Shown: positions 1,089 through 27,055, counted from the stretch's first letter. The stretch: 64,000 nucleotides of DNA from Gaiellales bacterium (GCA_038237665.1 JBBRYK010000006.1:4907-68906), one strand, 5' to 3'. The notes: generated by a model not told the origin, from the sequence alone. A program made the numbers and translations.

Positions 1089-1117
1089 CATCGGGGCGCC
1101 GAGATTTGAACTCGGGA
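1089..1117 (-). repeat. orphan copy of the tRNA-Pro 3' end (distal att site of the island)
   Basis: CATCGGGGCGCCGAGATTTGAACTCGGGA is identical over 29 nt to 27027-27055, which is the T-arm plus acceptor 3' strand of the tRNA-Pro gene and 2 nt beyond it. Confidence 0.8.
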
Positions 1118-1235
1118 ATGCAGGCGCGTAGTCGCCAGCTGGCTTCTAGAGCCAAATTTAGCCGGTTTTTGGTGGCCCCCTCGTTGGGAGTCATGCTGCC
1201 CGGCCCCCCTGCGCCTGCCGGAGTGTCTCCCCCGG

Positions 1236-2099
1236 TCAGAGGCCCAGTAGGCGTATTGCGTTCCGCTTGAGAATCAAAGGCTTCACCTCGTCCTTGAAGC
1301 CCGCGTCCTCGAAGTCCGCGAGCCAGCGGTCGGGCGTGATCATCGGGTAGTCGGAGCCGAAGAGCACTCGATCCTTGAGCAGCGTGTTCGCGTAGCGGAT
1401 CAATAGAGGCGGGAAGTACTTCGGTGACCAGCCGGAGAGGTCGATGTAGACCTGCTGCTTGTGCAGGGCGATCGAGATCGCCTCGTCCTGCCAGGGGAAC
1501 GAGGGGTGCGCGAGCACGATCTTCAACTCGGGAAAGTCGACCGCCACGTCGTCGACGTAGATCGGGTTCGAGTACTTGAGGCGGATGCCGCCGCCGCCAG
1601 GTAGACCGGCGCCGATCCCCGAATGGCCAGTGTGGAAGAGCGCGGGCAGGCCCGCTTCGGCGATCGTCTCGTAGAGCGGGTAGAACGCGTGGTCGTTCGG
1701 GAAGAACGCCTGGATGTTCGGGTGGAACTTGAAGCCCCGGACACCGTAATCCCGGATCAGCCGGGCCGCTTCCTCCACACCCTTGGCGCCCTTGTTCGGA
1801 TCGATCGACGCGAACGGGATCAGCACGTCGTCGTTGGCCGCGGCGACCTCGGCGATCTCCTCGTTCGGCACGGCACGCCGGCCGGTCACGGACTCCGCAT
1901 CGACGGTGAAGACGACGGCCGCCATGTTCCGCTCGCGGTAGTACGCGGCCACGTCCTCGACCGTGGGCAACCCCGATTCGCCGAAGTACCGCGCCGCGGC
2001 TTCGCGCCACTCGGGCCGGAGTCCGTCCTCCCCGCTCCGCCCCACCTCCGCATGGGTGTGCACGTCGATCGCGACGACGTTCTCGACGTCGATGCTCAT
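1236..2099 (-). CDS. amidohydrolase 2 / ACMSD-superfamily metal-dependent hydrolase or decarboxylase
   Basis: 287-aa ORF. N-terminal IDVHTHA (HxH metal motif), then FHPNIQ, HTGHSG and a C-terminal GSDYP, typical of the PF04909-type TIM-barrel fold. Confidence 0.85.
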   Translation of the reverse strand: MSIDVENVVAIDVHTHAEVGRSGEDGLRPEWREAAARYFGESGLPTVEDVAAYYRERNMAAVVFTVDAESVTGRRAVPNEEIAEVAAANDDVLIPFASIDPNKGAKGVEEAARLIRDYGVRGFKFHPNIQAFFPNDHAFYPLYETIAEAGLPALFHTGHSGIGAGLPGGGGIRLKYSNPIYVDDVAVDFPELKIVLAHPSFPWQDEAISIALHKQQVYIDLSGWSPKYFPPLLIRYANTLLKDRVLFGSDYPMITPDRWLADFEDAGFKDEVKPLILKRNAIRLLGL

Positions 2100-2141
2100 G
2101 CGAGTGCGGTGATGAACGGGCTGAGGAAGCCGGTGGTCGGC

Positions 2142-3536
2142 TCAACCTGGGCCATCGAGACCTCCTGTCGGGGTGGCTACGAAGACGGGATCGAGAGCTT
2201 GCACCGCCACGCGGGCGGCTGCGAGGGCCTCCGCCTCATGGAAGCGGCGAGCGACGATCTGGATGCCGTTGGGGAGCGCGATCGACGGCAGGCTGAGCAG
2301 ATTGACCCAGACGACGTCGCGCATGTGGTCGAAGAGGTCTCGGGTCGCGGCCTCGTCGAGCCAGAAGTCGAACTCGAGCGGCGGCGCCTTCATCCCCGCG
2401 ACGGGCGCGACGATCAGCGGGCACTCCTCCATCAGCAGTGCGGTCTCCTGAGCGGTCCGCCGGCGCTCGGCGTACGAGGCCGCGTAGCGCCCGAGGCTGT
2501 CGCCGATGTCGAAGAGGCCGAACATGACCTCGATGTGCTGCCGGTTCCCCTTCGCGATCAGCCCGTCCCAGGCGGGCAGCGCCGAGTGCAGCAGCTCTGA
2601 CCCCACGAGCTCGGCCCAGAGCTCCGGCGCCCGCGGGGCGTTCGGGATGCCGCCTGCGACGACCTCGTAGCCGTCCTGCTCGAGCGCTGCGCACATGCGG
2701 TCCAGCTCACGCTCGATGTCCGGCTCGATCGCCGCTCCCGTCTCGCGCAACATCCGCAGCACCTTGCGCGGGCCGGCCGGGACTGGGTCGACGACCGGAA
2801 CGCTGACCGGGTCGCGCGGATCAGGGCCGGCCAGAACCTCGTACGTCGCCCACAGATCGTCGAGCGAGCGGGCGAGCGGACCGATCGAGTTCATCAGGTC
2901 GAGCGTCATGCCCCCGGCCGCGGGGTTCAGCGCCTGCACGTGCGGGACCCGCCCCGCGGACGGCCGCAGGCCGAAGATGCCGCAGAAGCTCGCCGGCACG
3001 CGGATCGACCCGCCGTAGTCGGCACCGAGCCCGACGGCCGCCATGCCCGCGGTCACGGCGGCGGCGTCCCCACCGGTTGACCCTCCGGGTGTGAGGCTTA
3101 GATCCCGCGGGTTTCGCGTCGGAGGGTAGAGGTCGTTGACCGTGTTCCAGCGGATCTGGAAGTCGGGCTGGTTGCACTTGCCGACGACGAACGCCCCGGC
3201 GTCGAGAAGCCGTTGGACGGCGAGGGAGGTGCCGGGCGAGCGGCGGTCGGCGAAGGCCTTGACCGCCTCCGTGTGACGCATCCCCTCAACATCGAAGTGA
3301 TCCTTGATCGACACCGGGACGCCGTCGAGCGGCAGATGCCCGCGGCCCTCGTGCGCGCGGTCCGCGGCGTCCGCCTCGTCGAGCACGGACCCGCGAAGCT
3401 CGATGATTGCGTGGACGTCGCCGTCGACCGCCTCGATGCGGTCGAGGTGGGCCGCGAGCACGTCGCGGCGGCTGACCGTCCGCTCGCCGACCAACCGAAC
3501 GATCTCCGTCGCGGTCAACTCGTGGAGCTCAGCCAT
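2142..3536 (-). CDS. amidase (amidase-signature family)
   Basis: GGSTGGDAAAV and GGSIRVPASFCG signature motifs. The start is taken at MAELHELTA (ATG 3534-3536); an upstream start at 3548 is possible. Confidence 0.85.
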   Translation of the reverse strand: MAELHELTATEIVRLVGERTVSRRDVLAAHLDRIEAVDGDVHAIIELRGSVLDEADAADRAHEGRGHLPLDGVPVSIKDHFDVEGMRHTEAVKAFADRRSPGTSLAVQRLLDAGAFVVGKCNQPDFQIRWNTVNDLYPPTRNPRDLSLTPGGSTGGDAAAVTAGMAAVGLGADYGGSIRVPASFCGIFGLRPSAGRVPHVQALNPAAGGMTLDLMNSIGPLARSLDDLWATYEVLAGPDPRDPVSVPVVDPVPAGPRKVLRMLRETGAAIEPDIERELDRMCAALEQDGYEVVAGGIPNAPRAPELWAELVGSELLHSALPAWDGLIAKGNRQHIEVMFGLFDIGDSLGRYAASYAERRRTAQETALLMEECPLIVAPVAGMKAPPLEFDFWLDEAATRDLFDHMRDVVWVNLLSLPSIALPNGIQIVARRFHEAEALAAARVAVQALDPVFVATPTGGLDGPG

Positions 3537-5466
3537 GGGCCCGCGCAAAGGCGACGAACGGCTCGAGGACGGCCGGGTCGGCGAGCGCGTCCCGGCTCGC
3601 GACCTCCTCGAGGGCTGCGCCGAGCAGGATGCGCTTTACCGGGAGTTCGAGCTTCTTGCCCGTCAGCGTCTTCGGAATCGCGGGCACTGCCTCGATGCGG
3701 TCCGGCCCGTGCCGCGGCGACAGGCTCGAGCGCAGCGCGGCCACGATTCGCGCACGCAGCGCGTCGTCGAGCTCAAGCCCACCGATGAGGACGACGAAGA
3801 GGATCAGCTCGCCGGCTCCGCCCTCCGCGTCTTCGAGGTGGACGACCAGCCCCTCGCTCACCTCGTCGAGCTCCTCCAGAACGGCGTAGAAGTCGCCGGT
3901 GCCCAGACGCACTCCGCCGCGGTTGAGCGTGGCATCGGAGCGACCGGTGATGACTGAGCCTCCGCTCTCGGTGAGCAGGATCCAGTCGCCCTGCCGCCAG
4001 ACGCCCGCATAGCGGTCGAAGTACGACGCGCGGTACCGCACCCCACCGGGGTCGTTCCAGAAGCCGACCGGCATCGACGGCATCGGCTTCGCGATCACGA
4101 GCTCGCCGACCACGGGGCGGCCGTCGAGGTCGAGCGCCCGTGCGTCGACGCCGAGGCAGCGAACGGACATTTCCCCGGCGCGGAGCGGCACGAGCGGACT
4201 GCAGGCGGTGAAGCCGGAGCAGACGTCCGTGCCCCCGGAGCCGTTGTTGAGGAACACGTCCGGCCCGAACTGGCCCGTGACCCAGCCGTAGGCATCGGGC
4301 GAGAGCGGCGAGCCCGCCGAGCCGAGGACGCGGAGCGGGTGCAGGTCGAAATCGCGGGCGGGCTGGAGGCCGGCCTTCCGCCACAGCGCGATCATGGCCG
4401 GGTTCGTCCCGAACATCGTCGCGCGCGTCTCCGCGACGATGCGCCAGAGCTCGGCCACGTCCGGGTGCGCCGGGTTGCCGTCGAACGTGACGATCTCAGC
4501 GCCGACGAGGAGGCCCGAGACGAGCGCGTTCCACATCATCCAGGCAGTTGTCGTCGGCCAGAAGAGGCGGTCGCCGCGACCCAGGTCCCACTGGAGCCCA
4601 TGGAGCTTCAGGTGCTCGAGCAGGATGCCGCCGTGCCCGTGCACGATCGCCTTTGGCAATCCGGTCGTCCCCGACGAGAAGAGAACGTAGAGCGGGTGCG
4701 CGAACGGCACCGCCTCGAACGCGAGCGGCCCCGGCTCGGCGAGCAGCTCGTCCCAGCCCCCGCGCGAACCGAACTCGCCGTACGGCACGTGCACCGTCGT
4801 CGCCAGGGACGACAGGCCCGCCTCGACCGCGGCCACCTCGGCGGAGCGGTCGACCGCCTTGTCGCCGTAGCGGTACCCGGACACGGTTAGCAGAACCTTC
4901 GGCTCGATCTGGGCGAAGCGGTCGACGACCGCGCGCGCGCCGAACTCGGGCGCGCACGAGGCCCAGATCGCTCCGAGACTGGCCGTGGCGAGGAACGCGA
5001 CCAGCGTCTCGGGAATGTTCGGCAGGTAGGCGACGACGCGGTCGCCCTTGCCGACACCGAGTCGCTCGAGGCCCGCGCGCGCCCGTGCCACCTGGTCGCG
5101 AAGCTCGCCGAACGTGAGGTCGACCGGCGGCCGCGTGTGCGAGCGGCCGTGTACGGCCGGCCGGTCGAGGCCGTCCTCGGCGCCGACCATGTTCTCCGCA
5201 TAGTTGAGGAGCGCGGCCGGGAACCACTCGGCCCCGGGCATTGCACGTGAGCTGAGAACGGCGGTGTAGGGGGCTCGCGCGCGCACACCGAAGAAGTCCC
5301 AGACCGACGACCAGAAACCGTCGAGATCCTCGACCGACCAGCGCCACAGCTCGTCGTAGCTCTCGAACTCGAGGCCCCGGTGCTCGGCGAGCCACCTCAG
5401 ATAGCGACCGATCTCCGTCCGCTCCCGCACGTCAGCTGGCGGCGTCCACACGACGTTAGAAGCCAA
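3529..5466 (-). CDS. acetoacetyl-CoA synthetase-like acyl-CoA ligase
   Basis: 645 aa. The N-terminus VVWTPPADVRERTEIGRYLRWLAEHRGLEFESYDELWRWSVEDLDGFWSSVW is typical of acetoacetate-CoA ligases, with the AMP-binding motif LFSSGTTGLPKAIVH. TTG start overlaps the pobA stop by 11 nt. Confidence 0.85.
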   Translation of the reverse strand: MASNVVWTPPADVRERTEIGRYLRWLAEHRGLEFESYDELWRWSVEDLDGFWSSVWDFFGVRARAPYTAVLSSRAMPGAEWFPAALLNYAENMVGAEDGLDRPAVHGRSHTRPPVDLTFGELRDQVARARAGLERLGVGKGDRVVAYLPNIPETLVAFLATASLGAIWASCAPEFGARAVVDRFAQIEPKVLLTVSGYRYGDKAVDRSAEVAAVEAGLSSLATTVHVPYGEFGSRGGWDELLAEPGPLAFEAVPFAHPLYVLFSSGTTGLPKAIVHGHGGILLEHLKLHGLQWDLGRGDRLFWPTTTAWMMWNALVSGLLVGAEIVTFDGNPAHPDVAELWRIVAETRATMFGTNPAMIALWRKAGLQPARDFDLHPLRVLGSAGSPLSPDAYGWVTGQFGPDVFLNNGSGGTDVCSGFTACSPLVPLRAGEMSVRCLGVDARALDLDGRPVVGELVIAKPMPSMPVGFWNDPGGVRYRASYFDRYAGVWRQGDWILLTESGGSVITGRSDATLNRGGVRLGTGDFYAVLEELDEVSEGLVVHLEDAEGGAGELILFVVLIGGLELDDALRARIVAALRSSLSPRHGPDRIEAVPAIPKTLTGKKLELPVKRILLGAALEEVASRDALADPAVLEPFVAFARAHG

Positions 5467-6619
5467 CGTAGTTCTCCGCCAGCGAGACCGCCGCGGCGTG
5501 CGAGGTCGTCACGTATCGCAGCTGCGAGAGTCGCAGCTTGCGCTCGAACGGGTCGTCCCCGGGCGGGCGGTGGAGCATCGAGGTCATCCACCAGGAGAAG
5601 TGCTCCGCCCGCCACACCCGCGGCAGGCAAAGCTTGGAATAGCGCTCGAGCGCGACGGCGTCCCGGGTGCGATACCACTCGGCGATCGATTCGGCGAGCA
5701 ACCGGACGTCGCGAATGGCGAGGTTCAACCCCTTGGCGCCCGTCGGCGGGACGATGTGCGCGGCGTCGCCCGCGAGGAAGAGGCGGCCGAACTGCATCGG
5801 CTCGACCACGTAGCTCCGCATGCCGGTGACGCCCCTCTCGAGGATCGGGCCTTCCGCGAGCGTCCACCCGTCCACGCCCAGGCGCATCTGGAGCTCCTGC
5901 CAGATCCGCTCGTCGGGCCACCGGGCGATGTCCTCGTCCGGCCGGCACTGCACATAGAGGCGACTCAGCTCCGGCGTGCGCAGGCTGAGCAGCGCAAAGC
6001 CGCGATCGTGCGCGGAGTAGACGAGCTCGTCGTTCGAGGGCGCGACGGCGGCGAGGATGCCGAGCCAGCCGAACGGATACTCGCGTGAGAACTCGCTCAA
6101 CACGCCGTCGGGGACACTGGAGCGGCAGACGCCGTGGAAGCCGTCACAGCCGGCGATCAGGTCGCACTCGAGCTCTTCATCCCGGCCCTCGTGCCGGAAC
6201 AAGACGCGCGGCCGCTCCGACGTCAGGTCGTGGAGGGCGACCGCCTCGGCCTCGAAGAGCAAAGGCACACCTGAGGCGAGGCGGGCCTCGATCAGATCCT
6301 TCACGACCTCGGTCTGGCCGTAGATGACGATTGTCCTGCCGCCGGTCAGGTCGCTCAGCGGGATCCGGTGCCGCTCACCGTCGAACTGGAGCTCGATCCC
6401 GTGGTGGACGATTCCCTCGCGCTGGAGGCGCTCTCCGACGCCCGCCTCGACGAGCAGGTCGACGGTCCCTTGCTCGAGCACCCCGGCGCGGATCCGGTGC
6501 TCGACGTAGTCGCGGCTGCGCGCCTCGAGGACGACCGAGTCGATGCCCTCCAGGTCGAGCAGCCGGGCGAGCGTGAGACCTGCCGGTCCGGCACCGACGA
6601 TGCCGACCTGAGTTCTCAG
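5456..6619 (-). CDS. pobA: 4-hydroxybenzoate 3-monooxygenase
   Basis: Colinear with PobA as I recall it (GQTEV..DL, GCDGFHG, LAGDAAHIVPPTGAKGLNLA). The FAD GxGxxG motif (GIVGAGPAG) lies upstream of the first canonical start (GTG 6481). I therefore extend the gene to CTG at 6617-6619, giving (M)RTQVGIVGAGPAG. Confidence 0.8.
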   Translation of the reverse strand: MRTQVGIVGAGPAGLTLARLLDLEGIDSVVLEARSRDYVEHRIRAGVLEQGTVDLLVEAGVGERLQREGIVHHGIELQFDGERHRIPLSDLTGGRTIVIYGQTEVVKDLIEARLASGVPLLFEAEAVALHDLTSERPRVLFRHEGRDEELECDLIAGCDGFHGVCRSSVPDGVLSEFSREYPFGWLGILAAVAPSNDELVYSAHDRGFALLSLRTPELSRLYVQCRPDEDIARWPDERIWQELQMRLGVDGWTLAEGPILERGVTGMRSYVVEPMQFGRLFLAGDAAHIVPPTGAKGLNLAIRDVRLLAESIAEWYRTRDAVALERYSKLCLPRVWRAEHFSWWMTSMLHRPPGDDPFERKLRLSQLRYVTTSHAAAVSLAENYVGF

Positions 6620-6987
6620 CCCAACTCCTCCTCGAGGACGCGCTGGGCGATCGCGAAGGCCGAGTTCGCGGCCGGCACGCCGCAGTAGATCGTCGAGTGC
6701 AGGAGCACTTCCTTGATCTCGTCAGGGGTCAGGCCGTTGCGAAGGGCGGCTCGGACATGCAGCTCGAGCTCGTGGTCACGGCCGAGGGCGATCAGCGCAG
6801 TGAGCGTGATGCAGCTGCGCGTCTTACGGTCGAGGCCGGGCCGGGTCCAGATCTCGCCCCACGCGTAGCGCGTGATCAGATCCTGGAAGTCGGTCGTGAA
6901 TTCCGTCGCGTTGCCGGTCGCCCGGTCGACGTGGGCGTCGCCCAGCACCTCGCGGCGCACCTTCAGGCCGTCGTCGTACGTGCTCAA
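6616..6987 (-). CDS. pcaC: 4-carboxymuconolactone decarboxylase
   Basis: C-terminal 123 aa of the 414-aa track ORF: STYDDGLKVRREVLG...TRPGLDRKTRSCITLTALIALGRDHELELHVRAALRNGLTPDEIKEVLLH (CMD family). TTG start forms a TTGA overlap with the pcaD stop. Confidence 0.8.
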   Translation of the reverse strand: MSTYDDGLKVRREVLGDAHVDRATGNATEFTTDFQDLITRYAWGEIWTRPGLDRKTRSCITLTALIALGRDHELELHVRAALRNGLTPDEIKEVLLHSTIYCGVPAANSAFAIAQRVLEEELG

Positions 6988-7712
6988 GCGGGCACCTCCT
7001 GGCGAAGATGGGCGAGCACCGCGGCGTTGAACGCCTCCGATTGCTCGACATTGGCGAAATGGGCTGCATCCGGGATGACGACGAGCTCCGCGCCGGCGAT
7101 ACCACCGGCGATCAGCTCCGCATGCGCCGGTGGGGTCGCCGGATCGTGCGCCCCGGCGATCACGAGGGTCGGAGCATGGATCAGCGGCAAGAGCTCCCTG
7201 GCATCCCAGCCGGCAAGCGCTTCGCAGGTGCCCGCGTAGGTCTCGGGCGGGATCGCGAGCAGCATCTCCCGGAACGCGGCAGTCCCGGCAAAGCGGGGTG
7301 TGAGCCACCGGCCCAGCGAGCCCTCGGCGACCGCCGTCATGCCTTCGGCGCGAACGAGGCTCGCCCTCTGGTGATAGCCGTCGGCCGGCCCGAAGTGCGC
7401 CGACGTGCAGGCGAGGACAAGACACTCGATCCGGGCCGGAGCGTGCGCGTCGAGCCACATGCCGACTGCCCCGCCGATCGAGAGGCCGCAGAGCGACGCG
7501 CGGTTGACCTCGAGCTGGTCCAGTAGGTCGACCAACCCGGCCGCCAGACCTTCGATCGTGTTCGCGGACGGATGGTCGTACCGCAGCACGCGAAACGTCT
7601 CCGACAGTGCCGGAACCTGGCGGTCCCAGAGCTCGAACGTCGTCCCGATCGAGTTCGAAAGGACGAGGACGTCTGCTCCCGCCGGCCCGTCGAGTCGGTG
7701 GCGGAGCGTCAT
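6984..7712 (-). CDS. pcaD: 3-oxoadipate enol-lactonase (alpha/beta hydrolase)
   Basis: 242 aa with nucleophile elbow GLSIGG and a C-terminal His region (IPDAAHF). Lies between pcaB and pcaC. Confidence 0.85.
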   Translation of the reverse strand: MTLRHRLDGPAGADVLVLSNSIGTTFELWDRQVPALSETFRVLRYDHPSANTIEGLAAGLVDLLDQLEVNRASLCGLSIGGAVGMWLDAHAPARIECLVLACTSAHFGPADGYHQRASLVRAEGMTAVAEGSLGRWLTPRFAGTAAFREMLLAIPPETYAGTCEALAGWDARELLPLIHAPTLVIAGAHDPATPPAHAELIAGGIAGAELVVIPDAAHFANVEQSEAFNAAVLAHLRQEVPA

Positions 7713-8950
7713 CCGCCCCCGGCCCCGTAGCGTTCGAGCGCCCGATCGACGAACGCCTCGGACGAGCCGAGGTAGGTGGTTGGGTCGAGCGCATCAGCCG
7801 GCACGTCGAGCGCTCCGAAATCCCCGCCTGCGACGAGCCGGTGCGCCTCCTCGCGGCCATGTCGCTCGGAGAGGAGGAAAGCGAGCCGCTCGGAAACCGT
7901 CTCTCGACCGAGGTTCTCGCGCATCCGCTCGGCGTTCACCTCGAGCCCCTCGAGCGCTTCGCGGATCGCGGCGGCCGCGCCTCCCGTGAGCGCGAAGGCT
8001 GCGGACAGAGCGCTCCACTCGGCCTGCCAGGCCCCGGCGGCCCGCTCGAGCTCGTGCGCCAGACCGCCCGTGAGCACGCCGGCGTGGGCGTGCACCTGCA
8101 GCGCACACGCGCGCGCGAGCGTGGAGCGCACAGGATTCCGCTTCTGCGGCATCGTCGACGAGCCGCCGCCGCTGCCCTCGGCCACCTCCCCGACCTCGCT
8201 CTGCGACAGGAGGATGATGTCGAGGCCGACCTTGGCGAGAACACCTGCCACGACGTCGAGTGCGCCGCCGAGCTGCGCGACTCGGACCCGGTTCGTGTGC
8301 CAGGGCAGGGCCGGGTGGACGAGGTCGAGCTCGTTCGCGTAGAGCCGCCTGACCTCGCAGGCCTGCTCGCCGAGCGGCGCGAGCGTCCCTGCGGCTCCGC
8401 CGAGTTGCGCGGCGAGCTCGACCGCGCGCAGCCCCTCCGCCGCGTCGATCAGGGCGACGAGCCACCCGGCTGCGCGGAACCCAAAAGTGATCGGGACGGC
8501 CTGCTGGAGCAGGGTTCGTCCGGCCGTCGGTGCCGAACGATGCTCGCGGGCGAGTTCCGCGCACGCAGCCGTGACGCGGTCCAGCTCCTCGAAGATCATC
8601 GCCCGAACCCGGCGAGCAACGAGCATCGCGGCCGTGTCAACGATGTCCTGGCTCGTCGCGCCCCAGTGGACGTACGTCGCCGCGTCGGCACGGACGACCT
8701 TCCGGAGCGCCCGCACGAGTGGCTCTGCCGCGTTGCCGGGCTGCCGCGCTTCCTCGAGGATCGCGTCGACGTCGAAGAGCTCCGGCCGGCAGGCCTCCGC
8801 GATCGCCGCCGCGGCAGCGGCCGGAATCACGCCGGCGAGCGCCTCCGCGTTCGCAAGCGCGCGCTCGGCCTCGAGCATCGCCTCGAGCCAGGCCTGATCG
8901 GACACGGCCTCACGGAAGTCGTGCGGGACGAAAAGGGCGTCGAAGGTCAC
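7709..8950 (-). CDS. pcaB: 3-carboxy-cis,cis-muconate cycloisomerase
   Basis: Fumarate-lyase superfamily signature GSSTMPQKRNP and WGATSQDIVDT. GTG start (VTFDALFVPHDF) forms a GTGA overlap with the pcaG stop. The longer track ORF (to 9466) is rejected as Arg-rich read-through. Confidence 0.85.
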   Translation of the reverse strand: MTFDALFVPHDFREAVSDQAWLEAMLEAERALANAEALAGVIPAAAAAAIAEACRPELFDVDAILEEARQPGNAAEPLVRALRKVVRADAATYVHWGATSQDIVDTAAMLVARRVRAMIFEELDRVTAACAELAREHRSAPTAGRTLLQQAVPITFGFRAAGWLVALIDAAEGLRAVELAAQLGGAAGTLAPLGEQACEVRRLYANELDLVHPALPWHTNRVRVAQLGGALDVVAGVLAKVGLDIILLSQSEVGEVAEGSGGGSSTMPQKRNPVRSTLARACALQVHAHAGVLTGGLAHELERAAGAWQAEWSALSAAFALTGGAAAAIREALEGLEVNAERMRENLGRETVSERLAFLLSERHGREEAHRLVAGGDFGALDVPADALDPTTYLGSSEAFVDRALERYGAGGG

Positions 8951-19858: not shown

Positions 19859-20970
19859 CCCCAGACCTCCGACGCGACCTCGACGAGCAGCCGCAGCTTC
19901 GCCACCTGCTCCTCGTAGGTGAGCGCGTTTCCCTCGACGGTCGAGGAGAAGCCGCACTGCGGCGAGAGGCACAGCTGCTCGAGCGGCGCGTACCGTGACG
20001 CGTCCTCGATCCGGCGCTTGAGCTCGTCCTTCGATTCCAGGTCTCCCCGTTTGGTGGTCACGAGCCCGAGGACGACGCGCTTGTCGCCCTTCGGGAGGAA
20101 CCTCAGCGGCTCGAAGCCGCCCGAGCGTTCGTCGTCCCACTCCATGAAGTAGCCGTCGACGTCGAGCTCGTTGAGGAGCGCCTCCGCGACGAAGTCGTAG
20201 CCGCCTTCCGCGACCCAGGAGGAGCGGAAGTTGCCACGGCACATGTGCGTCGTCACGGTCATGCCGGCCGGTCGGCCGTCGAGCGCCGCGTTGACGTGCC
20301 GGATGTACTCCAGGTGTTGCCGTTCCGCATCGCCGCCGATCGACTCGACGTACCGGCGCTGCTCCGGATCGTTCAGGTAGGCGAGGCTCGTGTCGTCGAG
20401 TTGAAGGTACGTGCAGCCGAGCTCACCGAGCCGGCGGAGTTCGTCCCTGTAAGCGGCGACGAGGTCTACCCAGAACTCCTCGACATTCGGATAGACGCTC
20501 TCGTCGATGGCGCCGCGGCCGCCGCGGTAGTGAACCATGCTCGGCGAGGGAATGGTGAGCTTCGGCGTCGCCGTGCCACAGGTGCCCCGGAGGAAGCTGA
20601 AGTCGCCTCCGAAGATCGTTCTGGACAGGCCGATCCGGCCGTCCACGTGGAGCGCAGCGGCCATGAATTCGAGATCGCCCTGCTCATTGTGAAACGTCAC
20701 CTTGACTTTGTCGTCGGCGGTCGAGATGCCGTCGAGCTGGTAGATGAAGTCCATGTGCCAGGAGCTGCGGCGGAACTCCCCGTCCGTGGCCGACTGCAGG
20801 CCCACGCTCTCCTGCATCGCCACTGCTCCGCGGATCGCCTCGTTCTCGGCTGCGCGAAGCTCCCCGGCGTCGATCCGCCCTGCCGCGAGGTCCGCCCGAG
20901 CCTGAAGAAGTGCCGGCGGCCGGAGCAAGCTGCCGACGTGATCCGCGCGAAACGGCGGCCGCTCGAGCAT
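19855..20970 (-). CDS. cobalamin-independent methionine synthase (MetE C-terminal domain) family protein
   Basis: 371 aa: FRADHVGSLLRP...HMCRGNF...LSPQCGF pattern of MetE-like Zn methyltransferases of about 370 aa. Confidence 0.85.
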   Translation of the reverse strand: MLERPPFRADHVGSLLRPPALLQARADLAAGRIDAGELRAAENEAIRGAVAMQESVGLQSATDGEFRRSSWHMDFIYQLDGISTADDKVKVTFHNEQGDLEFMAAALHVDGRIGLSRTIFGGDFSFLRGTCGTATPKLTIPSPSMVHYRGGRGAIDESVYPNVEEFWVDLVAAYRDELRRLGELGCTYLQLDDTSLAYLNDPEQRRYVESIGGDAERQHLEYIRHVNAALDGRPAGMTVTTHMCRGNFRSSWVAEGGYDFVAEALLNELDVDGYFMEWDDERSGGFEPLRFLPKGDKRVVLGLVTTKRGDLESKDELKRRIEDASRYAPLEQLCLSPQCGFSSTVEGNALTYEEQVAKLRLLVEVASEVWG

Positions 20971-21044
20971 CGCGAGAGGCTAGTCGAGGAACTAGGATCG
21001 CGAGTTGGAGGCCTGGCCGACCCGTTCTCAACCGCGACGCGATC

Positions 21045-21308
21045 ATGCTCAGGGACGCTATTGCCGAGTTGGAGTCGACAGCTCGGCGGCTGGATCCTGG
21101 GCAAGAGCAGCGGGACGACCTGTGGGGCGCTGTAGGGGCTCACGTTCTCGGGAACCTCTCGAGCCTCGGGGAGGCCGCTGCGTTCTCGACCGACGGGGTG
21201 CCCGACGCTGAGGCATTTGCAATCGCGGAGACGCCGACAGAAATCGCCGATGCGCTGATAACGATCAAAGCCGTGGAGCAGACCGGCATCAACCAGGCGT
21301 CGGGGTGA
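21045..21308 (+). pseudogene. possible 5' fragment of a PLP-dependent decarboxylase gene
   Basis: 87-aa ORF MLRDAIAELESTARRLDPG...GINQASG. It stops where such enzymes continue (GHLGYIPGG as I recall) and the next gene starts 3 nt later. Weak, memory-based match. Confidence 0.3.
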
Positions 21309-21311: not shown

Positions 21312-22262
21312 GTGCCACGAATGATGGCGCCCTTCAGGCCTAAACGACAGACCCTGGTCGTCGCGGCGCTCGTCGCCGTCATCCTCGTCCTGGTCTACGG
21401 CGGCGTTTCCTGGGTCTTCTCGGACAAGCTGATCGCGCAGACGTTCAAGCCCCTCGGCCCCGTCGACCTGGCCGCCTTCGGGCTGCCCCAACCCGAGGAG
21501 GCAACCATCCCCGGGGACGGCGGAGCCACGTTGGCAGCCTGGTATTTCGCCAATCCGCGGCACGAACGCTGTGCCGTGGTGATGCTGCACGGCTTCGGCG
21601 GCAGCAGATCCGAGATCATCGCCGCCACCCCGATCTTCTGGGGCCGCGGCTGCGACCTCCTGCTCTACGACGCCCGTGGACACGGCGAGAGCTCACCCTC
21701 CCTCCTCACCTACGGCGCCCACGAGCGGCAGAATCTGCGCCTCGCGATCGACTGGCTGGCCGGCAAGAGCGGGCTGCCGCGGATGCGGATCGGGCTGATC
21801 GGGTGGTCGTACGGTGCCGCCACCGCGATCCAGGCGGCCGCCGAGGTCTACGACGTCGCCTTCGTCGTCGCCGATTCTTCTTATTCCAGCCTCGGCGACA
21901 TCGCCCGCGCGCAGGCCGGCAAGCAGTTCGGGGCGTGGGCCAAGCTCTTCGTCCCCGGCGCCTTGCTGGTCTCCGGGCTGCGCGCCGGCTTCGACGCCAG
22001 GGACGTCGCACCGGCGAACGCGATCCGAGACGTGCAAGCGCCTGTATTGCTGATCCACTCCCGTCAGGACCGTTTCACTCCGGTCGGGCAATCCGAACGC
22101 ATCTACGCCCACAGCAACAAGAACCGCACCCGGCTCGTCATCCCGGCCTGGGAAGCGGAGCACGGGCATTCCTACACGACCAACGCGGTCGGCTACACCG
22201 CCGTGGTCGACCGCTTCCTGCAGACGTTGGCCCCCGGGTTCGGCGTGCGCCTCAAGCGGTGA
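21312..22262 (+). CDS. membrane-anchored alpha/beta hydrolase
   Basis: N-terminal TM (LVVAALVAVILVLVYGG), HGFGG oxyanion region, GWSYG nucleophile elbow, and a late Asp/His (SRQDRF, EHGH). Confidence 0.8.
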   Translation: MPRMMAPFRPKRQTLVVAALVAVILVLVYGGVSWVFSDKLIAQTFKPLGPVDLAAFGLPQPEEATIPGDGGATLAAWYFANPRHERCAVVMLHGFGGSRSEIIAATPIFWGRGCDLLLYDARGHGESSPSLLTYGAHERQNLRLAIDWLAGKSGLPRMRIGLIGWSYGAATAIQAAAEVYDVAFVVADSSYSSLGDIARAQAGKQFGAWAKLFVPGALLVSGLRAGFDARDVAPANAIRDVQAPVLLIHSRQDRFTPVGQSERIYAHSNKNRTRLVIPAWEAEHGHSYTTNAVGYTAVVDRFLQTLAPGFGVRLKR

Positions 22263-22690: not shown

Positions 22691-24010
22691 TCAGTGTCGT
22701 TCACCTGGGAGGGGGAGCTTGACAGTGAAGCTGGTTCCCGTGTGGGGGCGGTTGAGGATTGTGACTGAGCCGTCCATCGCCTCGGTCAGCTCTTTGACGA
22801 TTGCGAGGCCGAGGCCGCTGCCGAGGCGGCGGTTGTGGCTGTAGCGCTCGTGGAGGTAGAAGCGTTCGAATGCGCGGGGGAGGTCGTGGCTGTCGATGCC
22901 TGGTCCGCTGTCGTTGACGATGAGCAGGCCGGGTTCGACGGTGACGGTCACGCTGCCGCCGGCCGGGGTCGAGCGGAGCGCGTTCTCGATCAGATTGGAG
23001 AGGACCTGGAGCAGGCGGTCGGGGTCTCCGACGGCCGAGGCTTCTGCCGCGCCGGCGATCTCGAGGCTGACATCGAGCGCGTCGGCCTGGTTCTGGTAGC
23101 GGGCCGCCGCGTCGTGTGCGACCTCGACGAGGTCGAGCGGCTCTCGCTTGACGGTGAAGGTGTGCTGGTTCAGCCTGGCGAGGTCGAGCAGGTCTTGGAC
23201 GAGCCGCTTGAGTCGCTTGGCCTCGCGCACGAGAACGTCGGCTGCGGTCTTGGGTTCGATCACGCCTTCGCTGATCGCCTCGGCGTGGCCGGAGATCGCG
23301 GTCAGCGGCGTCTTCAGCTCGTGGCTGACCGAGAGCAGGAAGGCTTTCTCGGTCGCGCGGGCGCGGTTGAGGTCGGCCGCCATCTCGTTGAACGCTTCGG
23401 CGAGGGCGACGGCTTCGTCGGGACCTGTCGCGGGGATGGGCGAAGGGTGGGCGCCGGCGGCGAGCTTGCGGGCGGCGGCGGCGACACGCCCGACTGGGCG
23501 CGCGATCGCTTGGGTCAGTAGGAGCGCGAAGATGGCCGCCAGGCTGGCGCCGATCAGGCCGGCGACGAGCAGGCTGATCGCGAATGGCCGCCCGTCGGCG
23601 GCCTCGAGGCGGGCGGATCGCAGCAGGATGACGACCCTGCGATCCGCGCGCCGGGCGGCGTAGAGGAACTTGCTTCCGCGGATGGTGAGGGTGCCGTCCG
23701 CAGGCCAGCCGGAGCGGAGCGCTGCGGCGCCGCTTGGAGGAAGGAGGAGCGCGGCCTGGTCGAGTGAGACGATCGAGAGGCGCTGCTCCTGGGTGGCGAG
23801 GAAGAGACCGAGGTTGGCGATCGGCGTGGAGGTGTTCGGTGCGGCCCGTGCCTGGACGGCGAGCAGGTCGGCTTGCCGGTCGAGTGATCTGCGCGCCTCG
23901 TGTGTGGCGGAGCGGCGGACGAGGAGGGCGCCGATCCCGACGGTCACGAAGATCGAGACGAGTACCGCGCTGACGGCGCCCAGGAAGAGCCGCGCGCGCA
24001 GTGAGTTCAC
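22691..24010 (-). CDS. sensor histidine kinase (two TM segments, HAMP, HisKA, HATPase)
   Basis: 439 aa with H-box SVSHELKTPLT, N-box LSNLIENALRST and G-boxes DSGPGI / GSGLGLAIV. GTGA overlap with the regulator stop. Confidence 0.9.
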   Translation of the reverse strand: MNSLRARLFLGAVSAVLVSIFVTVGIGALLVRRSATHEARRSLDRQADLLAVQARAAPNTSTPIANLGLFLATQEQRLSIVSLDQAALLLPPSGAAALRSGWPADGTLTIRGSKFLYAARRADRRVVILLRSARLEAADGRPFAISLLVAGLIGASLAAIFALLLTQAIARPVGRVAAAARKLAAGAHPSPIPATGPDEAVALAEAFNEMAADLNRARATEKAFLLSVSHELKTPLTAISGHAEAISEGVIEPKTAADVLVREAKRLKRLVQDLLDLARLNQHTFTVKREPLDLVEVAHDAAARYQNQADALDVSLEIAGAAEASAVGDPDRLLQVLSNLIENALRSTPAGGSVTVTVEPGLLIVNDSGPGIDSHDLPRAFERFYLHERYSHNRRLGSGLGLAIVKELTEAMDGSVTILNRPHTGTSFTVKLPLPGERH

Positions 24011-24724: not shown

Positions 24725-25582
24725 TTATAGGGCTCCGAACGCCCAGAGCTCGCGGCGGGCTCCGGTGCGGGCGACGGTGACGAAGCCGGGCTTGAGCTGC
24801 CCGATCGAGCCGCGTGCTCCGTTGAAGAAGACGCGCGTCTTCGCGGTGACCGCGATTCTGACGGTGCCGCCCCCTTCGGTGCGGAGCGCGATCGCCTGGC
24901 CGGTGACCGTGGCGATCGTGCCGCGGTAGAGATGCGCACTCGCTTGGCGCGGCGGTGAGAACGCGAACAGCTCGCGCAAGTGGATCGCTTTCTTCTTGCC
25001 GTTGTCCTCGGAGCTATCCGCCGTCGGGCGTACCACGACGACGTGGCCGGCCTTGAGCTCGGAAATCGACGAAGGCTCGCCGTCGAGGTGGAGTTGCGTC
25101 GCTCCGTCGATCACCATGGTGACGCTCTTGCCCTCGCTGACCAGCACGAGTTGGTTGTGTGAGACGGTGCGCAGAACACCAGCCAGGGGCTTGCCCGAGT
25201 GCGGCGGGGTGTGTGCCGGGGAGAAGGCGTCAACCTCCTGCGCCGCCTGCCCGCTCTTGCCACGCTCGGTCACCACGGCCACGAAGCCGGGTCGCACATC
25301 GAGGATCGAAGCCGGATGGCCGTCGACGAGCACACGCGTGCGCGCATCGACGGCCACGGCGACCGTGCTCCCGTCGAGCGTCTTCAGGACGAGCCCGTCC
25401 GCCGACACCGATTGCACAATCCCGCGCTCGCTCGACGGTCGGTCCCGGCTCGAGGACGGCGTATTCCCCGCCGGCAAATCGGCGGGTTTCCCTGCGCTAC
25501 CGGCTGACGAAGTGCCCGACCAAACGAGCCCGAGCGCAGCAGCGCACACGGGCAGCCAGACTCTCCATCGCCCCGGTTTCAT
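24725..25582 (-). CDS. secreted protein with three tandem DUF5666-like repeats
   Basis: Signal peptide, then three ~70-aa repeats of the form G-x-V-x-x-V-(8-10 aa)-L-x-T-x-x-G-x-x-V-x-V-x-V-x-x-x-T-x-V-x-x-x-G, each ending AFSP/AFGA. First gene of the RR-HK operon (19-nt gap). Confidence 0.75.
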   Translation of the reverse strand: MKPGRWRVWLPVCAAALGLVWSGTSSAGSAGKPADLPAGNTPSSSRDRPSSERGIVQSVSADGLVLKTLDGSTVAVAVDARTRVLVDGHPASILDVRPGFVAVVTERGKSGQAAQEVDAFSPAHTPPHSGKPLAGVLRTVSHNQLVLVSEGKSVTMVIDGATQLHLDGEPSSISELKAGHVVVVRPTADSSEDNGKKKAIHLRELFAFSPPRQASAHLYRGTIATVTGQAIALRTEGGGTVRIAVTAKTRVFFNGARGSIGQLKPGFVTVARTGARRELWAFGAL

Positions 25583-25795: not shown

Positions 25796-26416
25796 ATGAA
25801 GCGAGCACTATTTCTGTTGTTCGTCGGCTTGCTCGCGGGGAGCGTGTTGGCTTCGGCTCAAGCGGCGCACAAGCCGCCGTCTGCGAAGAAGACGACGATC
25901 TGTCACCGCACACATTCAGCGACGAATCCTTACGTGACCTTGAGGGTCTCGACCGCCGCCCTGGCGGGACACATGCACCACTCGGGGGACATCATTCCTG
26001 CACCTGCAGGCGGTTGCCCGAAGGTCGCGATCGACCCCCATCACGGTGGTCATCTGCTCACGGCGACGCTGACGGGTCATGCGGAGGTTCCCGGCCCCGG
26101 CGACCCGGACGGTAGCGGTACAGCTTCGATTCGGCTGACAGGCGGCGAGGGCAGGCTGTGCTTCGAGCTGACGGCGAAGAACATCGTGCTACCGGCAACG
26201 GGCGCCCACATCCACCAGGGCGGAGCAACCGTGGCCGGACCGATCGTCGTCCCGCTGTCACCACCGGATGCCGGCGGCAGCTCGGCCGGCTGCGTTTCGG
26301 TGGATCGCGCACTGGTCGCGGCGATCCTTACGAATCCCGCCGGCTATTACGCGAACGTCCACACCTCGGACTATCCGGCCGGCGCAATCCGCGGCCAGCT
26401 GCAGCTGGTTCCGTAG
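25796..26416 (+). CDS. secreted CHRD-domain protein with a His/Cys-rich N-terminal module
   Basis: Signal peptide, then KKTTICHRTHSATNPYVTLRVSTAALAGHMHHSGD. CHRD-like segment: LTGHAEVPGPGDPDGSG...AHIHQGGATVAGPIV...YYANVHTSDYPAGAIRGQL. SD GGGGAGG precedes the ATG. Confidence 0.8.
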   Translation: MKRALFLLFVGLLAGSVLASAQAAHKPPSAKKTTICHRTHSATNPYVTLRVSTAALAGHMHHSGDIIPAPAGGCPKVAIDPHHGGHLLTATLTGHAEVPGPGDPDGSGTASIRLTGGEGRLCFELTAKNIVLPATGAHIHQGGATVAGPIVVPLSPPDAGGSSAGCVSVDRALVAAILTNPAGYYANVHTSDYPAGAIRGQLQLVP

Positions 26417-26427
26417 CAAGGCCCGAG

Positions 26428-26453
26428 GAGGGGGGAGGCGAGCCTCCCCCCTC
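26428..26453 (+). terminator. perfect 12-bp GC hairpin after the CHRD gene
   Basis: GAGGGGGGAGGC-GA-GCCTCCCCCCTC, 12 nt after the TAG stop. There is no strong T-tract. It directly abuts the truncated integrase fragment. Confidence 0.5.
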
Positions 26454-26457
26454 TCTA

Positions 26458-26977
26458 TTCGCCGGCCTGACGGGCCTGCGGCCCGAGGAGTGGATCGCGC
26501 TCGAACGCGGCGACGTCGACAGGGCCGCTGGCGTCGTCCATGTACGCCGCGTCTACACGGACGGTCGGGTCAAACCGTTCGGCAAGCAGGAGCGGTCGCT
26601 AACGCGCTGTCCCTCTTCCGTCCCGTGCGGCCCATGCGCTCGACGCGATGCCGCCACGGATCGACACTCGGCTTCTCTTCCCCGGCGACCGCGGCGGCCA
26701 CCTGAACCTGCACAACTGGCGGGCCGACCACTCGACGCCAGCCGTCAAAGCCGCCGGCCTCGAACACCGCACCCCCTACGCCCTGCGACACACGTTCGCG
26801 ACATTCGGGATCGCCGCTGGCGTTTCCCTGTTCGAGCTCGCCCGGTTCCTGGGGACCAGCGCCGAGCAGATCGACAAGACCTACGGGCACCTGCTCCCGG
26901 ACGCCCTCAACCGGACGCGTGGCGCGCTCGACACCTTCCTCGCGGAGCCTTCCGAAAAGGTAACCCGGGATGCTTAG
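26458..26977 (+). pseudogene. tyrosine recombinase (phage-integrase family) remnant: catalytic domain only, frameshifted
   Basis: Frame A: FAGLTGLRPEEWIALERGDVD...GKQERSLT. After a shift near 26590-26600, frame B: RAVPLPSRAAHALDAMPPRIDTRLLFPG...YALRHTFATFGIAAGV...GTSAEQIDKTYGHL (R..HxxR..Y catalytic pattern). No N-terminal core-binding or arm domain is present. Confidence 0.75.
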
Positions 26978-27026
26978 ACCTACCTGCGGATCATCATCGT
27001 TTGGGCCACGGTTTGGGCCAGAAAAC

Positions 27027-27055
27027 CATCGGGGCGCCGAGATTTGAACTCGGGA
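27027..27055 (-). repeat. proximal att copy (inside and just 3' of tRNA-Pro)
   Basis: Identical 29-mer to 1089-1117. Confidence 0.8.

Follow-up and report, generated by a model that had tools for sequence, protein, structure and literature searches.

[quoted passage not shown] It is an island of the ordinary, well-understood tRNA-integrated kind. Integration at the tRNA 3' end had been proposed by a sequence-only reading of this DNA, and our analyses bore this out: the repeats are derived from the tRNA, the integrase is tRNA-proximal, and the family to which it belongs recurs at tRNA-Pro(GGG).

Direct repeats and the tRNA-Pro(GGG) gene

The island is bounded by an exact direct repeat of 29 nt, as previously noted. 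The 29-mer CATCGGGGCGCCGAGATTTGAACTCGGGA occurs exactly twice in the window, at 1089-1117 and 27027-27055, and a search of the window revealed no extra copies with three or fewer mismatches. None of 100 shuffled sequences contained a match, and the chance expectation is 0. This repeat (family D18) is the sole exact long repeat within 1-30000. ARAGORN and Rfam (RF00005, 62.4 bits) each predicted a single tRNA in the whole window, tRNA-Pro(GGG) at 27029-27103 on the minus strand. This intact gene is the integration target, and relatives have an identical or nearly identical tRNA downstream of proS-HTH. Because the tRNA spans these positions on the minus strand, the right copy (27027-27055) takes in the 3'-terminal 27 nt of the tRNA and a further 2 nt outside the gene. 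It is the proximal, attL-like copy and forms the 3' end of the functional tRNA.

The left copy (1089-1117) is the distal, attR-like copy, an orphan tRNA-Pro 3' end made of 27 nt of tRNA and 2 flanking nt. Neither ARAGORN nor Rfam predicted a tRNA there, consistent with the earlier description of this copy as an orphan fragment. A terminator scan placed a terminator-like minus-strand hairpin, GAAAAGCCCGC-ACTGA-GCGGGCTTTTTGTTTTG, at 1092-1060, where it overlaps the left copy. This intrinsic terminator (1060-1092, a hairpin with a T-tract) has homologues that follow the intact tRNA-Pro(GGG) of relatives, which supports the description of the left copy as an orphan beside the native tRNA terminator. 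As judged from these homologues, the hairpin appears to be the original terminator of tRNA-Pro, now downstream of the catabolic operon.

The left copy is shorter (29 nt) than those of related elements, which are 36-45 nt long and reach the anticodon arm, and its inner edge has therefore probably been eroded. The island-side DNA next to the left copy does not significantly resemble the arm that is conserved in L093 and L101. Beyond the 29 nt, similarity is at chance level, since 8.8% of random segments score equally high. These data also bear on another explanation, in which the left copy stems from a tandem-duplicated second tRNA-Pro gene, or arose by chance, with no integration at all. Nothing except the bare existence of the repeat speaks for this. 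A chance repeat is at odds with an expectation of 0, the left copy has no tRNA or tRNA-like continuation past the chance level just mentioned, and an integrase of a tRNA-Pro-specific family lies at the opposite end. The repeat statistics, the tRNA scans and the integrase effectively refute this explanation, and we consider it extremely improbable.

The integrase remnant

The right copy completes an intact tRNA-Pro, and a recombinase remnant lies 51 nt away, oriented toward the tRNA, as had been reported. The remnant (26455-26977, plus strand) was delineated by three-frame translations, homologue alignments and a match to the PHROG_1 integrase family (E=7e-24). It ends at 26977, leaving 51 nt to the tRNA 3' end. 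It represents the C-terminal ~55% of a tyrosine integrase and retains the catalytic domain only; the motifs TGLRPEE, ALRHTF and TYGHL correspond to the R...(H)xxR...Y catalytic domain of tyrosine recombinases. A 124-aa piece of it scored 23.7 bits against Pfam PF00589 (Phage_integrase), under the cutoff of 27.1, and its homologues carry PF00589.

In alignments with the 304-aa integrase of L093, the remnant is 75% identical over residues 132-184 and 81% identical over residues 183-298, in two frames. It is 69% identical to the 351-aa integrase of L092 over residues 183-338. About 130-180 N-terminal residues, comprising the arm- and core-binding domains, are missing; the L092 integrase has N-terminal matches to Arm-DNA-bind_4 and Phage_int_M, both missing from the remnant. 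The remnant begins abruptly at homologue residue ~132, right behind the terminator of the CHRD gene, and has a +1 frameshift at ~26602. No complete single-frame integrase with N-terminal domains is present at 26455-26977 in translations and alignments. The sequence-only reading had described an integrase that lost its N-terminal half and was frameshifted, and the alignments, whose first aligned residue is 132 (of 304) or 183 (of 351) and which contain one frame change, agree with it. The frameshift and the CHRD/integrase junction are read from a single NCBI contig, the only one known to contain P0084. Because the integrase is truncated, xis is absent and the left att copy is short, no excision of a circle is predicted, and the island has presumably lost its capacity for excision.

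A family of elements at tRNA-Pro(GGG)

The integrase family contains more than 1,270 proteins. In all six contexts examined (L092, L093/L094, L095/L096, L101, L102 and L004), a member adjoins tRNA-Pro(GGG) or fragments of it. The closest integrases of cultured phages are only 28-30% identical. L092 is a prophage fragment (IMG/VR UViG_3300044521_000079) encoding a portal protein, TerL and a prohead protease. L093/L094 is a 10.6 kb element with 43-nt tRNA repeats that carries AAA_25, an HTH_17 excisionase and int. Other orphan tRNA-Pro fragments were observed in L002, L005, L083/85/88, L089 and L090, indicating that this site is a hot spot.

The island shares with L092 and L093/L094 the integrase family (69-81% identity across the part that the remnant keeps), the target, tRNA-Pro(GGG), and the direction of int toward the tRNA 3' end. 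It differs in that these relatives still encode an integrase of full length together with an excisionase and/or an AAA_25 replication gene, and their repeats are 43 nt long. They carry genes for phage structural proteins or a small number of minor accessory genes, whereas the island holds a metabolic block of 25 kb. The island might be a fossil of an undescribed and abundant family of tRNA-Pro(GGG)-specific elements, ranging from prophages to small replicative elements in soil Gaiellales/Thermoleophilia and represented by the more than 1,270 metagenome integrases, each less than 30% identical to any integrase of a cultured phage, that moved a whole operon for degradation and uptake of 4-hydroxybenzoate/protocatechuate between uncultured Gaiellaceae. 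We offer this broader interpretation tentatively, as a possibility with somewhat less than an even chance. If it is true, the island is a direct example of the exchange of a carbon-use trait within an uncultured Gaiellaceae clade.

Metabolic cargo of the island

Most of the island is a long minus-strand operon of 17 genes for the 4-hydroxybenzoate/protocatechuate (beta-ketoadipate) pathway and an ABC transporter. A divergent gene at 18956-19858 (plus strand) encodes an IclR-family regulator (Pfam HTH_IclR, IclR_C). The other genes in this paragraph are on the minus strand. A branched-chain-type ABC uptake system (14216-18953) consists of two permeases, two ATPases and a solute-binding protein (Pfam BPD_transp_2 x2, ABC_tran x2 and Peripla_BP_6). 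It is followed by a Zn alcohol dehydrogenase (13113-~14200; PF08240, PF00107) and an aldehyde dehydrogenase (11626-~13050; PF00171, E=5e-156), whose starts were both taken from a GC3 phase plot. Two CoA-transferase subunits, pcaI-like (10804-11622) and pcaJ-like (10103-10801), were assigned on Pfam (PF01144) and synteny only, with 70-78% identity to the syntenic genes of L103; the match to TIGR02428 is weak and below cutoff. Equivalog models matched above cutoff for pcaH (protocatechuate 3,4-dioxygenase beta, 9441-10106; TIGR02422, 358 bits), pcaG (the alpha subunit, 8947-9501; TIGR02423, 158 bits), pcaB (3-carboxy-cis,cis-muconate cycloisomerase, 7709-8950, start approximate; TIGR02426, 357 bits) and pcaC (4-carboxymuconolactone decarboxylase, 6616-6990; TIGR02425, 180 bits). 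The assignment of pcaD (3-oxoadipate enol-lactonase, 6984-7712) comes from a Pfam abhydrolase match and a TIGR02427 score of 241 bits, just under cutoff. A 4-hydroxybenzoate 3-monooxygenase, pobA (5456-6619), matched the subfamily model NF006091 of NCBIfam above cutoff (611 bits). The operon ends with an acetoacetate-CoA ligase-like acyl-CoA synthetase (3529-5466; Pfam AMP-binding, NCBIfam NF002937, 854 bits), an amidase (2142-3548; PF01425, E=8e-76) and, as its last gene, a TIM-barrel metal hydrolase of the Amidohydrolase_2 family (1236-2099; PF04909, E=7e-52).

The protocatechuate-branch set pobA, pcaHG, pcaB, pcaC, pcaD and pcaIJ is all present in the island. As for pcaF, the beta-ketoadipyl-CoA thiolase gene, Pfam detected no thiolase within the island, and a copy could lie elsewhere in the genome; the syntenic operon of L103 has a thiolase between pcaC and pobA. 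The pcaC gene has a TTG start overlapping the pcaD stop, and pobA has no ATG, GTG or TTG at the homologous position, where a CTG overlaps the pcaC stop; in L103 the corresponding start is GTG.

The gene order of the operon is the same in L103-L106, and no tRNA, integrase-remnant match or att-region match was found in the operon context of these four. Hundreds of Gaiella/Gaiellaceae proteins match the amidohydrolase at 82-87% identity. By these comparisons of sequence and gene order, the catabolic operon is a common, typical Gaiellaceae operon and not a foreign one. It would serve in the uptake of 4-hydroxybenzoate-type aromatics and their conversion via protocatechuate and the beta-ketoadipate pathway.

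Between the IclR gene and the integrase remnant lie a MetE-like cobalamin-independent methyltransferase (19855-20970, minus; Pfam Meth_synt_2, NCBIfam NF005085, 449 bits), an alpha/beta hydrolase (21312-22262, plus; Pfam abhydrolase families) and, both on the minus strand and assigned by Pfam, a two-component system of a HAMP/HisKA histidine kinase (22691-24010) and an OmpR-type response regulator (24007-~24700). An ORF of unknown function at 24725-25582 (minus) has a coding-like GC3 phase and no Pfam or PHROG match. A CHRD-domain protein (25796-26416, plus; PF07452, E=2e-27) is followed by a G/C-rich hairpin at 26431-26454. Pfam and PHROG detected no phage structural, packaging or lysis genes in the island, and it does not qualify as a prophage. 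The sequence-only reading had listed the cargo as metabolic and regulatory, not phage-like, and the Pfam and NCBIfam calls agree.

Chromosomal flanks and relatives

The left flank contains a decayed GH3-like ORF (391-1131, plus strand; partial Pfam GH3 match and translation). Both ends of the GH3 N-domain, N- and C-terminal, remain, as does a signal peptide, but the central catalytic region is missing. The ORF runs through the terminator into the att copy, and the same ORF is present in L097. In the right flank, Pfam and translation identified, all on the minus strand, a PPK2 pseudogene (27172-27849), an XRE-type HTH gene (27871-28176) and proS, encoding prolyl-tRNA synthetase (28176-29861). 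The order ispG-proS-HTH-tRNA-Pro is kept in Gaiellales relatives in GTDB, and none of 12 relatives has island genes within 10 kb of proS.

In seven metagenome contigs (L081, L082, L084, L086, L087, L089 and L091), an intact tRNA-Pro(GGG) is directly followed by the homologous terminator. The HTH gene was also found in four of the seven, in L087 at 90% identity, and two of those four have ProRS as well. This arrangement of tRNA and adjoining terminator probably represents the uninterrupted configuration, as far as the sequences of the contigs tell. The particular empty site that had been predicted, with the GH3-like gene, terminator, tRNA-Pro and PPK2 in a row, was not found; relatives have terminator, tRNA, HTH and ProRS, without PPK2. 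No relative with the left flank of the window (GH3/PALP) beside the tRNA was found, and orthologues of the left-flank PALP gene (87-88% identity) have different neighbours in relatives.

The source is apparently an NCBI contig of an uncultured organism, and a metagenome contig could have been misjoined at the shared tRNA sequence, in which case the 26 kb and the flanks would not be contiguous in a real genome. Indeed, independent short-read contigs break in or at the tRNA-derived sequence (L098 at 1088; L099/L100 at 27075-27078). Such breaks are to be anticipated, given that the tRNA and terminator edge recur in identical form in many co-occurring relatives. Independent assemblies of two further sequencing runs reproduce both the left junction and the PPK2 pseudogene, at 99.4-99.9% identity. 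L097, from another run, crosses the left junction at 99.9% identity in the order PALP-GH3-terminator-att-amidohydrolase-amidase. Moreover, k-mers commonly used in assembly are longer than the 29-nt repeat, and an integrase remnant beside the tRNA is the biologically expected layout and recurs in relatives. A misjoin is thus very unlikely.

Origin of the island

[quoted passage not shown] Recombination would have rebuilt the tRNA from element DNA, giving the right copy beside int, and moved the native 3' end of the tRNA, along with the terminator, 25.9 kb away, giving the left copy. Later deletions would have removed the mobility module, including the excisionase, the AAA_25 replication protein and the first 130-180 residues of the integrase, and probably also the inward-facing portion of the distal att site. 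The leftover integrase fragment would then have gained its +1 frameshift, and transcription of the catabolic operon would now read out into the old tRNA terminator.

Composition, put forward in the sequence-only reading as a check, did not set the island apart; an atypical composition is usual for islands of this kind, though not a requirement. GC is 0.66-0.72 in the island vs 0.67-0.73 in the other 37 kb, and the correlation of tetranucleotide deviations between the two is 0.977. Given this native composition and an operon typical of Gaiellaceae, with 82-87% identity and synteny in places that have no att sites, any donor must be a close relative. All 25 kb probably arrived as element cargo, presumably from another Gaiellaceae, and the 26 kb may have been transferred as a single unit.

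The original element has lost its inner edge on either side, which is also compatible with a later replacement of the interior. Here, only a prophage or other small element, similar to L092 or L093, entered tRNA-Pro, and its interior, from within the distal att site to within int, was later exchanged for a 25 kb chromosomal block of the host or a sister strain by illegitimate or homologous recombination; the catabolic operon was then never cargo of the element that bore the integrase. Consistent with this, the left att copy measures 29 nt vs 36-45 nt and has no conserved arm of the family, the integrase is cut off at residue ~132 directly behind the CHRD terminator, and the cargo is native in composition. 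Furthermore, the operon is a standard Gaiellaceae one that occurs elsewhere in a setting that lacks a tRNA and any match to the integrase remnant or the att region, and the known family members, a prophage fragment and a 10.6 kb element, have no large metabolic cargo. However, such a replacement requires a rare double-ended swap exactly between the att copies that left a 17-gene operon unharmed, and the observations are also accounted for by two ordinary deletions that discarded useless mobility DNA. The island interior yielded no trace of a second junction, an IS element or an additional att copy, and large tRNA-Pro islands grown on small integrative elements are documented in actinomycetes (PMC2440964). 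We regard interior replacement as unlikely, though as the most serious alternative to transfer as element cargo.

Comparison with known systems

[quoted passage not shown] The intact relative L093 (~10 kb) is AICE-like in having int, a MerR/HTH_17-type excisionase and a replication-type NTPase; it has AAA_25 and HTH_17, and no FtsK-like gene. Pfam detected no FtsK/SpoIIIE-type transfer, RepSA/RepAM, Kor or Pif modules in the window, and L093 has none of these either. Nor is a RepSA/RepAM/prim-pol replication module among the Pfam results for the island. Family member L092 differs further from AICEs, with phage head and packaging genes instead. Lacking transfer, RepSA/RepAM/prim-pol and Kor/Pif modules, the island was not classified as an AICE.

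ICEclc of Pseudomonas knackmussii B13 is a self-transmissible ICE of ~100 kb in tRNA-Gly that encodes a type IV secretion system and whose integrase is active. Both ICEclc and the island have an aromatic-degradation pathway between tRNA 3'-end repeats and a tRNA-proximal tyrosine integrase. Unlike ICEclc, the island has no transfer genes, its integrase is dead, and its pathway is native to its own family.

The 153 kb island SCO6806-SCO6953 of Streptomyces coelicolor is flanked by 43-bp repeats, one of which is the 3' end of a Pro-tRNA; it is thought to originate from a small integrative element, and its cargo consists of non-mobility 'fitness' genes (PMC2440964). It is six times larger than the island described here, contains IS elements and multiple insertions, and has an intact integrase of the pSE222/AICE group, whereas we observed an integrase fragment of a different family, a 29-nt repeat and no IS element or secondary insertion. 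The two islands have in common a short direct repeat, a tyrosine integrase adjoining a Pro-tRNA and a non-mobility cargo.

The direct repeats and the native tRNA locus

The window contains exactly two copies of the 29-mer CATCGGGGCGCCGAGATTTGAACTCGGGA, at 1089-1117 and 27027-27055, and this is the only exact long repeat within the first 30 kb. No third copy was present in the window at up to three mismatches, and 0 of 100 shuffles matched. Both ARAGORN and Rfam detected a single tRNA, tRNA-Pro(GGG), at 27029-27103 on the minus strand. Therefore, the right copy takes in the final 27 nt of the tRNA together with two bases of flank. Read on the tRNA strand, the repeat begins with the final two bases of the variable loop, crosses the T arm and the 3' strand of the acceptor, and closes with TG. 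The left copy belongs to no tRNA according to either program, and a sequence scan revealed a terminator-like hairpin, GAAAAGCCCGC-ACTGA-GCGGGCTTTTTGTTTTG, that overlaps it on the minus strand. Thus, the sequence-only reading, which had described an exact direct repeat at both ends with an orphan fragment beside a terminator on the left and an intact tRNA completed on the right, was confirmed on these points, and the left copy is not part of a second complete tRNA gene, since the window holds only one tRNA.

ProRS, encoded at 28176-29861, shows at most 77% identity to GTDB species representatives, the best of which are MAGs of Gaiellaceae, Gaiellales and Thermoleophilia. The gene order ispG-like/proS/small XRE-HTH gene/tRNA-Pro(GGG) is kept in these relatives, so that the tRNA occupies its ancestral place. 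Island genes were found within 10 kb of proS in none of the 12 closest loci. Metagenomes scanned with the left junction (the final ten terminator/flank bases, GGGCTTTTCA, plus the rest of the 29-mer) yielded 11 contigs. In seven of them (L081, L082, L084, L086, L087, L089 and L091), the hairpin AAAAGCCCGC-loop-GCGGGCTTTTCA lies directly 3' of an intact tRNA-Pro(GGG), with the HTH and ProRS genes beyond the tRNA wherever the contig is long enough; the HTH protein of L087 is 90% identical to that of the window. These seven contigs represent the uninterrupted configuration. Because the same hairpin directly follows an intact tRNA in them, the terminator beside the orphan copy is the tRNA's own. 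In the remaining four contigs, unrelated DNA follows orphan tRNA fragments of 39-45 nt, which marks other insertions at the same site.

A same-species empty site would read ...GCGGGCTTTTCATCGG...GGGA joined directly to CCTCTAGTCCCCCAG, between the GH3 flank and PPK2. Look-ups with ProRS, HTH, amidohydrolase and PALP yielded no such site with the window's left flank from the same species or genus: the exact-protein look-up with ProRS gave no record, HTH gave only same-species contigs ending inside the tRNA, the same-species contigs retrieved with amidohydrolase confirm the left junction, and PALP homologues with 87-88% identity have different upstream neighbours. We also considered CHRD beside PALP in a relative's contig (L110) as an ancestral linkage and dismissed it as a coincidence, since the proteins are only 45% identical.

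The integrase remnant and its family

Three-frame translation of 26420-26979 gives an integrase in two pieces in adjacent frames, LFAGLTGLRPEEWIALERGDVDR...GKQERSL in one and RAVPLPSRAAHALD...ALRHTFATF...TYGHLLPD... up to the stop in the next, with one extra base between them at about 26602. Taken together, the pieces share 69% identity with residues 183-338 of the 351-aa integrase of L092, an IMG/VR provirus fragment. Compared with P0002, the 304-aa integrase of a 10.6 kb element (L093), they show 75% identity to residues 132-184 and 81% to residues 183-298. No integrase sequence was found 5' of 26455, which is directly after the hairpin of the CHRD gene, and the arm-binding and core-binding domains present in the L092 integrase are absent from the remnant. 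The integrase had been described as frameshifted and lacking its N-terminal half, and both features were recovered; the single-base shift is known from one NCBI contig alone (ORF P0084) and could be a sequencing error. Relics of AAA_25, xis or phage genes were not detected inside the island by tblastn with L092 and L093 proteins or by PHROGs. Between the two copies of an 11-nt direct repeat, GGCCCGAGGAG, at 26420-26430 and 26480-26490, lie the CHRD terminator hairpin and the initial 25 nt of the remnant; the second copy codes for the integrase residues RPEE. The repeat may have been left by the event in which the integrase was truncated, or it may simply belong to a long GC-rich hairpin.

At E<=1e-10, more than 1,270 homologues of the remnant were found, mostly in soil metagenomes. 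In all readable contexts, the family is located at tRNA-Pro(GGG) or at fragments of it. Genes in L092 specify a prohead protease/capsid protein, portal, large terminase, an AAA_25 NTPase and an integrase reading into the tRNA, and the 10.6 kb element (L093/L094) encodes AAA_25, an HTH_17 excisionase and an integrase beside the tRNA, with a 43-nt repeat at its ends that runs from the tRNA 3' end to exactly the 5' edge of the anticodon loop. This shows that the family covers both prophages and non-phage elements. In other contigs the integrase adjoins the tRNA or a tRNA-derived end (L095, L096 and L102), lies between two orphan copies (L101, 5102/11374), or is a fragment adjoining the tRNA (L004). 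Small islands of 1.9-3.2 kb are also found at the site in L002 (12067/15277), L005 (17460/19389) and L089 (295/2870). Since all readable contexts are at tRNA-Pro(GGG) or its fragments, this gene is a general insertion hot spot in Gaiellales, where tandem or decayed elements are common, and the family is specific for it. The closest integrases of cultured phages, those of mycobacteriophages, are only 28-30% identical. Orphan copies of the tRNA 3' end, 36-45 nt long, some mismatched and 1.9-6 kb apart, were observed in L002, L005, L089, L101, L083, L085, L088 and L090. In L093 (9805-10915), the closest intact element, the arm-binding N-terminus of the integrase is encoded by a 70-aa ORF of its own that overlaps the 304-aa ORF and shows homology to the L092 integrase (residues 5-66). 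Either the gene is split or there is a frameshift, whether real or a long-read error.

Edges of the element

Repeats of related elements are 36-45 nt long and extend to the anticodon arm, and immediately inward of the orphan copy, the elements in L093 and L101 share an arm that is clearly homologous. Identity of the window's repeat ends at 29 nt. Because the repeat stops there and the integrase starts abruptly, both inner edges of the original element have been lost. Two deletions would have removed dispensable mobility DNA, leaving the edges as they are seen now. These deletions are the favoured explanation of the edges, within an island reading that as a whole is very probably correct; a tRNA-Pro island of S. 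coelicolor with 43-bp flanking repeats provides a precedent (PMC2440964). A degenerate continuation of the left att site to the anticodon loop (TAGTCGCCAG vs TAGTCCCCCAG, then GCTTCT as in L093) was rejected as chance by randomisation (8.8%; 28-35% for the arm). The 43-nt repeats of related elements suggest that the family's crossover may fall in the anticodon loop. If so, the left copy would no longer contain the crossover site, and the island would thus be immobile even if a helper integrase were supplied.

The cargo and its origin

GC3 phase and Pfam/NCBIfam revealed a tightly packed minus-strand array from 18953 to 1236. In order of transcription it encodes a branched-chain-type ABC system (solute-binding protein, two ATPases and two permeases), a Zn alcohol dehydrogenase and an aldehyde dehydrogenase, two CoA-transferase subunits, PcaH, PcaG, PcaB, PcaD and PcaC, PobA (4-hydroxybenzoate 3-monooxygenase), and finally an acetoacetate-CoA-ligase-like enzyme, an amidase and an amidohydrolase_2. 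An IclR regulator (18956-19858) is divergent from the array, and the genes past it encode a MetE-like enzyme, an alpha/beta hydrolase, a histidine kinase/OmpR pair, an ORF of no assigned function and a CHRD protein. The island was found to lack phage genes as well as genes for conjugation, replication or excision, consistent with the initial description of the cargo as metabolic and regulatory rather than phage-like. A distance of 118 nt separates the end of the last array gene from the orphan att copy, so that transcription of the array would now enter the old tRNA terminator.

The homologous start of pobA (6560-6640, minus strand) lacks ATG, GTG or TTG and reads GGG-CTGA-GAACTCAGG, with a CTG overlapping the pcaC stop codon and GAGGAGGAG upstream of it. 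L103, a contig of another Gaiellaceae lineage, has GTGA in place of CTGA (7150-7240) and a thiolase gene (pcaF) between pcaC and pobA that is missing from the window. This suggests that a precise deletion of pcaF left pobA relying on a CTG start or on translational coupling. On the plus strand, ORFs 20910-21308 and 21312-22262 (the alpha/beta hydrolase) are in the same frame with one stop codon between them; coding-like GC3 starts near 21000, and the upstream ORF has no match in Pfam or PHROG. The region could be one longer gene with an in-frame stop or two separate genes.

GC and tetranucleotide usage of the island match those of the other 37 kb of the window (correlation 0.977), and the compositional comparison proposed in the sequence-only reading thus gave no signal. 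Hundreds of proteins, several of them labelled Gaiella or Gaiellaceae, share 82-87% identity with the amidohydrolase; the best matches reach 95% and 92%. L103-L106, from the other Gaiellaceae lineage (including GCA_037025265.1), have the same gene order as the island operon (aldh, pcaIJ, pcaHG, pcaB, pcaD, pcaC, thiolase, pobA, ligase, amidohydrolase), with 47-84% identity between orthologous genes; their ligase is of a different family (about 26% identity). The L103-L106 operon lies in chromosomal surroundings that contain no tRNA and match neither the integrase remnant nor the att region. By composition and homology, the cargo does not appear foreign, which points to a close relative as the donor or to an old, ameliorated island. 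All 25 kb may, but need not, have travelled with the integrase. The main rival explanation, that the interior of the element was replaced once by native DNA, is improbable in our estimate, and we retain the island with two deleted edges.

The repeats, the intact tRNA, the homology of the terminator and the remnant are all consistent with a tRNA-integrated island with a decayed integrase, as first proposed. The locus is a real, degraded and probably fixed catabolic island of a well-known kind, and its mechanism is textbook. Its value is local. Gaiellales are abundant soil actinobacteria that are almost wholly uncultured, and their mobile elements are, to our knowledge, essentially undescribed. 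The Gaiellales tRNA-Pro(GGG) gene is a recurrent landing site of one integrase family, and defining the att sites, the family and the hot spot helps annotation of Gaiellaceae MAGs. The locus is also a candidate case of capture of an aromatic-catabolism module by a tRNA-integrated element: a complete lignin-monomer (4-hydroxybenzoate/protocatechuate) module may reside in such an element and become fixed once its mobility genes decay, a candidate within-family transfer of a carbon-use trait.

Assembly support and flanking pseudogenes

Independent short-read contigs from two other runs are 99.4-99.9% identical to the window. One of them, L097, covers PALP-GH3-terminator-att-amidohydrolase-amidase; therefore, the left junction is real. 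The right junction (CHRD/int/tRNA) is known from the window's own assembly alone. L098 ends at window position 1088, the edge of the att copy, and L099 and L100 end inside the tRNA, at 27078 and 27075, which is to be expected where many co-occurring relatives share an identical tRNA. The breaks are likely caused by the tRNA and terminator edge being identical among these relatives, and they neither support nor oppose an empty-site allele.

PPK2 (27172-27849, minus strand) is a pseudogene, with its Walker-A segment (VLLVLQGLDASGKDG...) in another frame and about 60 residues deleted after HDYLW. Sequencing error is unlikely because L099 and L100, two independent short-read assemblies, show the same lesions. 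The HTH gene and the tRNA, which PPK2 separates here, are only about 20-100 nt apart in most relatives; the gap is 9 kb in L008 and 4 kb in L102, indicating that the 5' side of the tRNA is variable too. The GH3-like ORF (391-1131, plus strand) comprises a signal peptide and the N- and C-terminal portions of the GH3 N-domain; the catalytic region in between is missing. With no stop of its own, the ORF continues across the terminator into the att copy. The gene has probably decayed, and with PPK2 this probably places pseudogenes in both chromosomal flanks of the island. Elsewhere in the window, a TPP riboswitch (RF00059, 61.6 bits) was found at 62794-62897 on the minus strand, where ORF 61663-62826 of the same strand has its 5' end.
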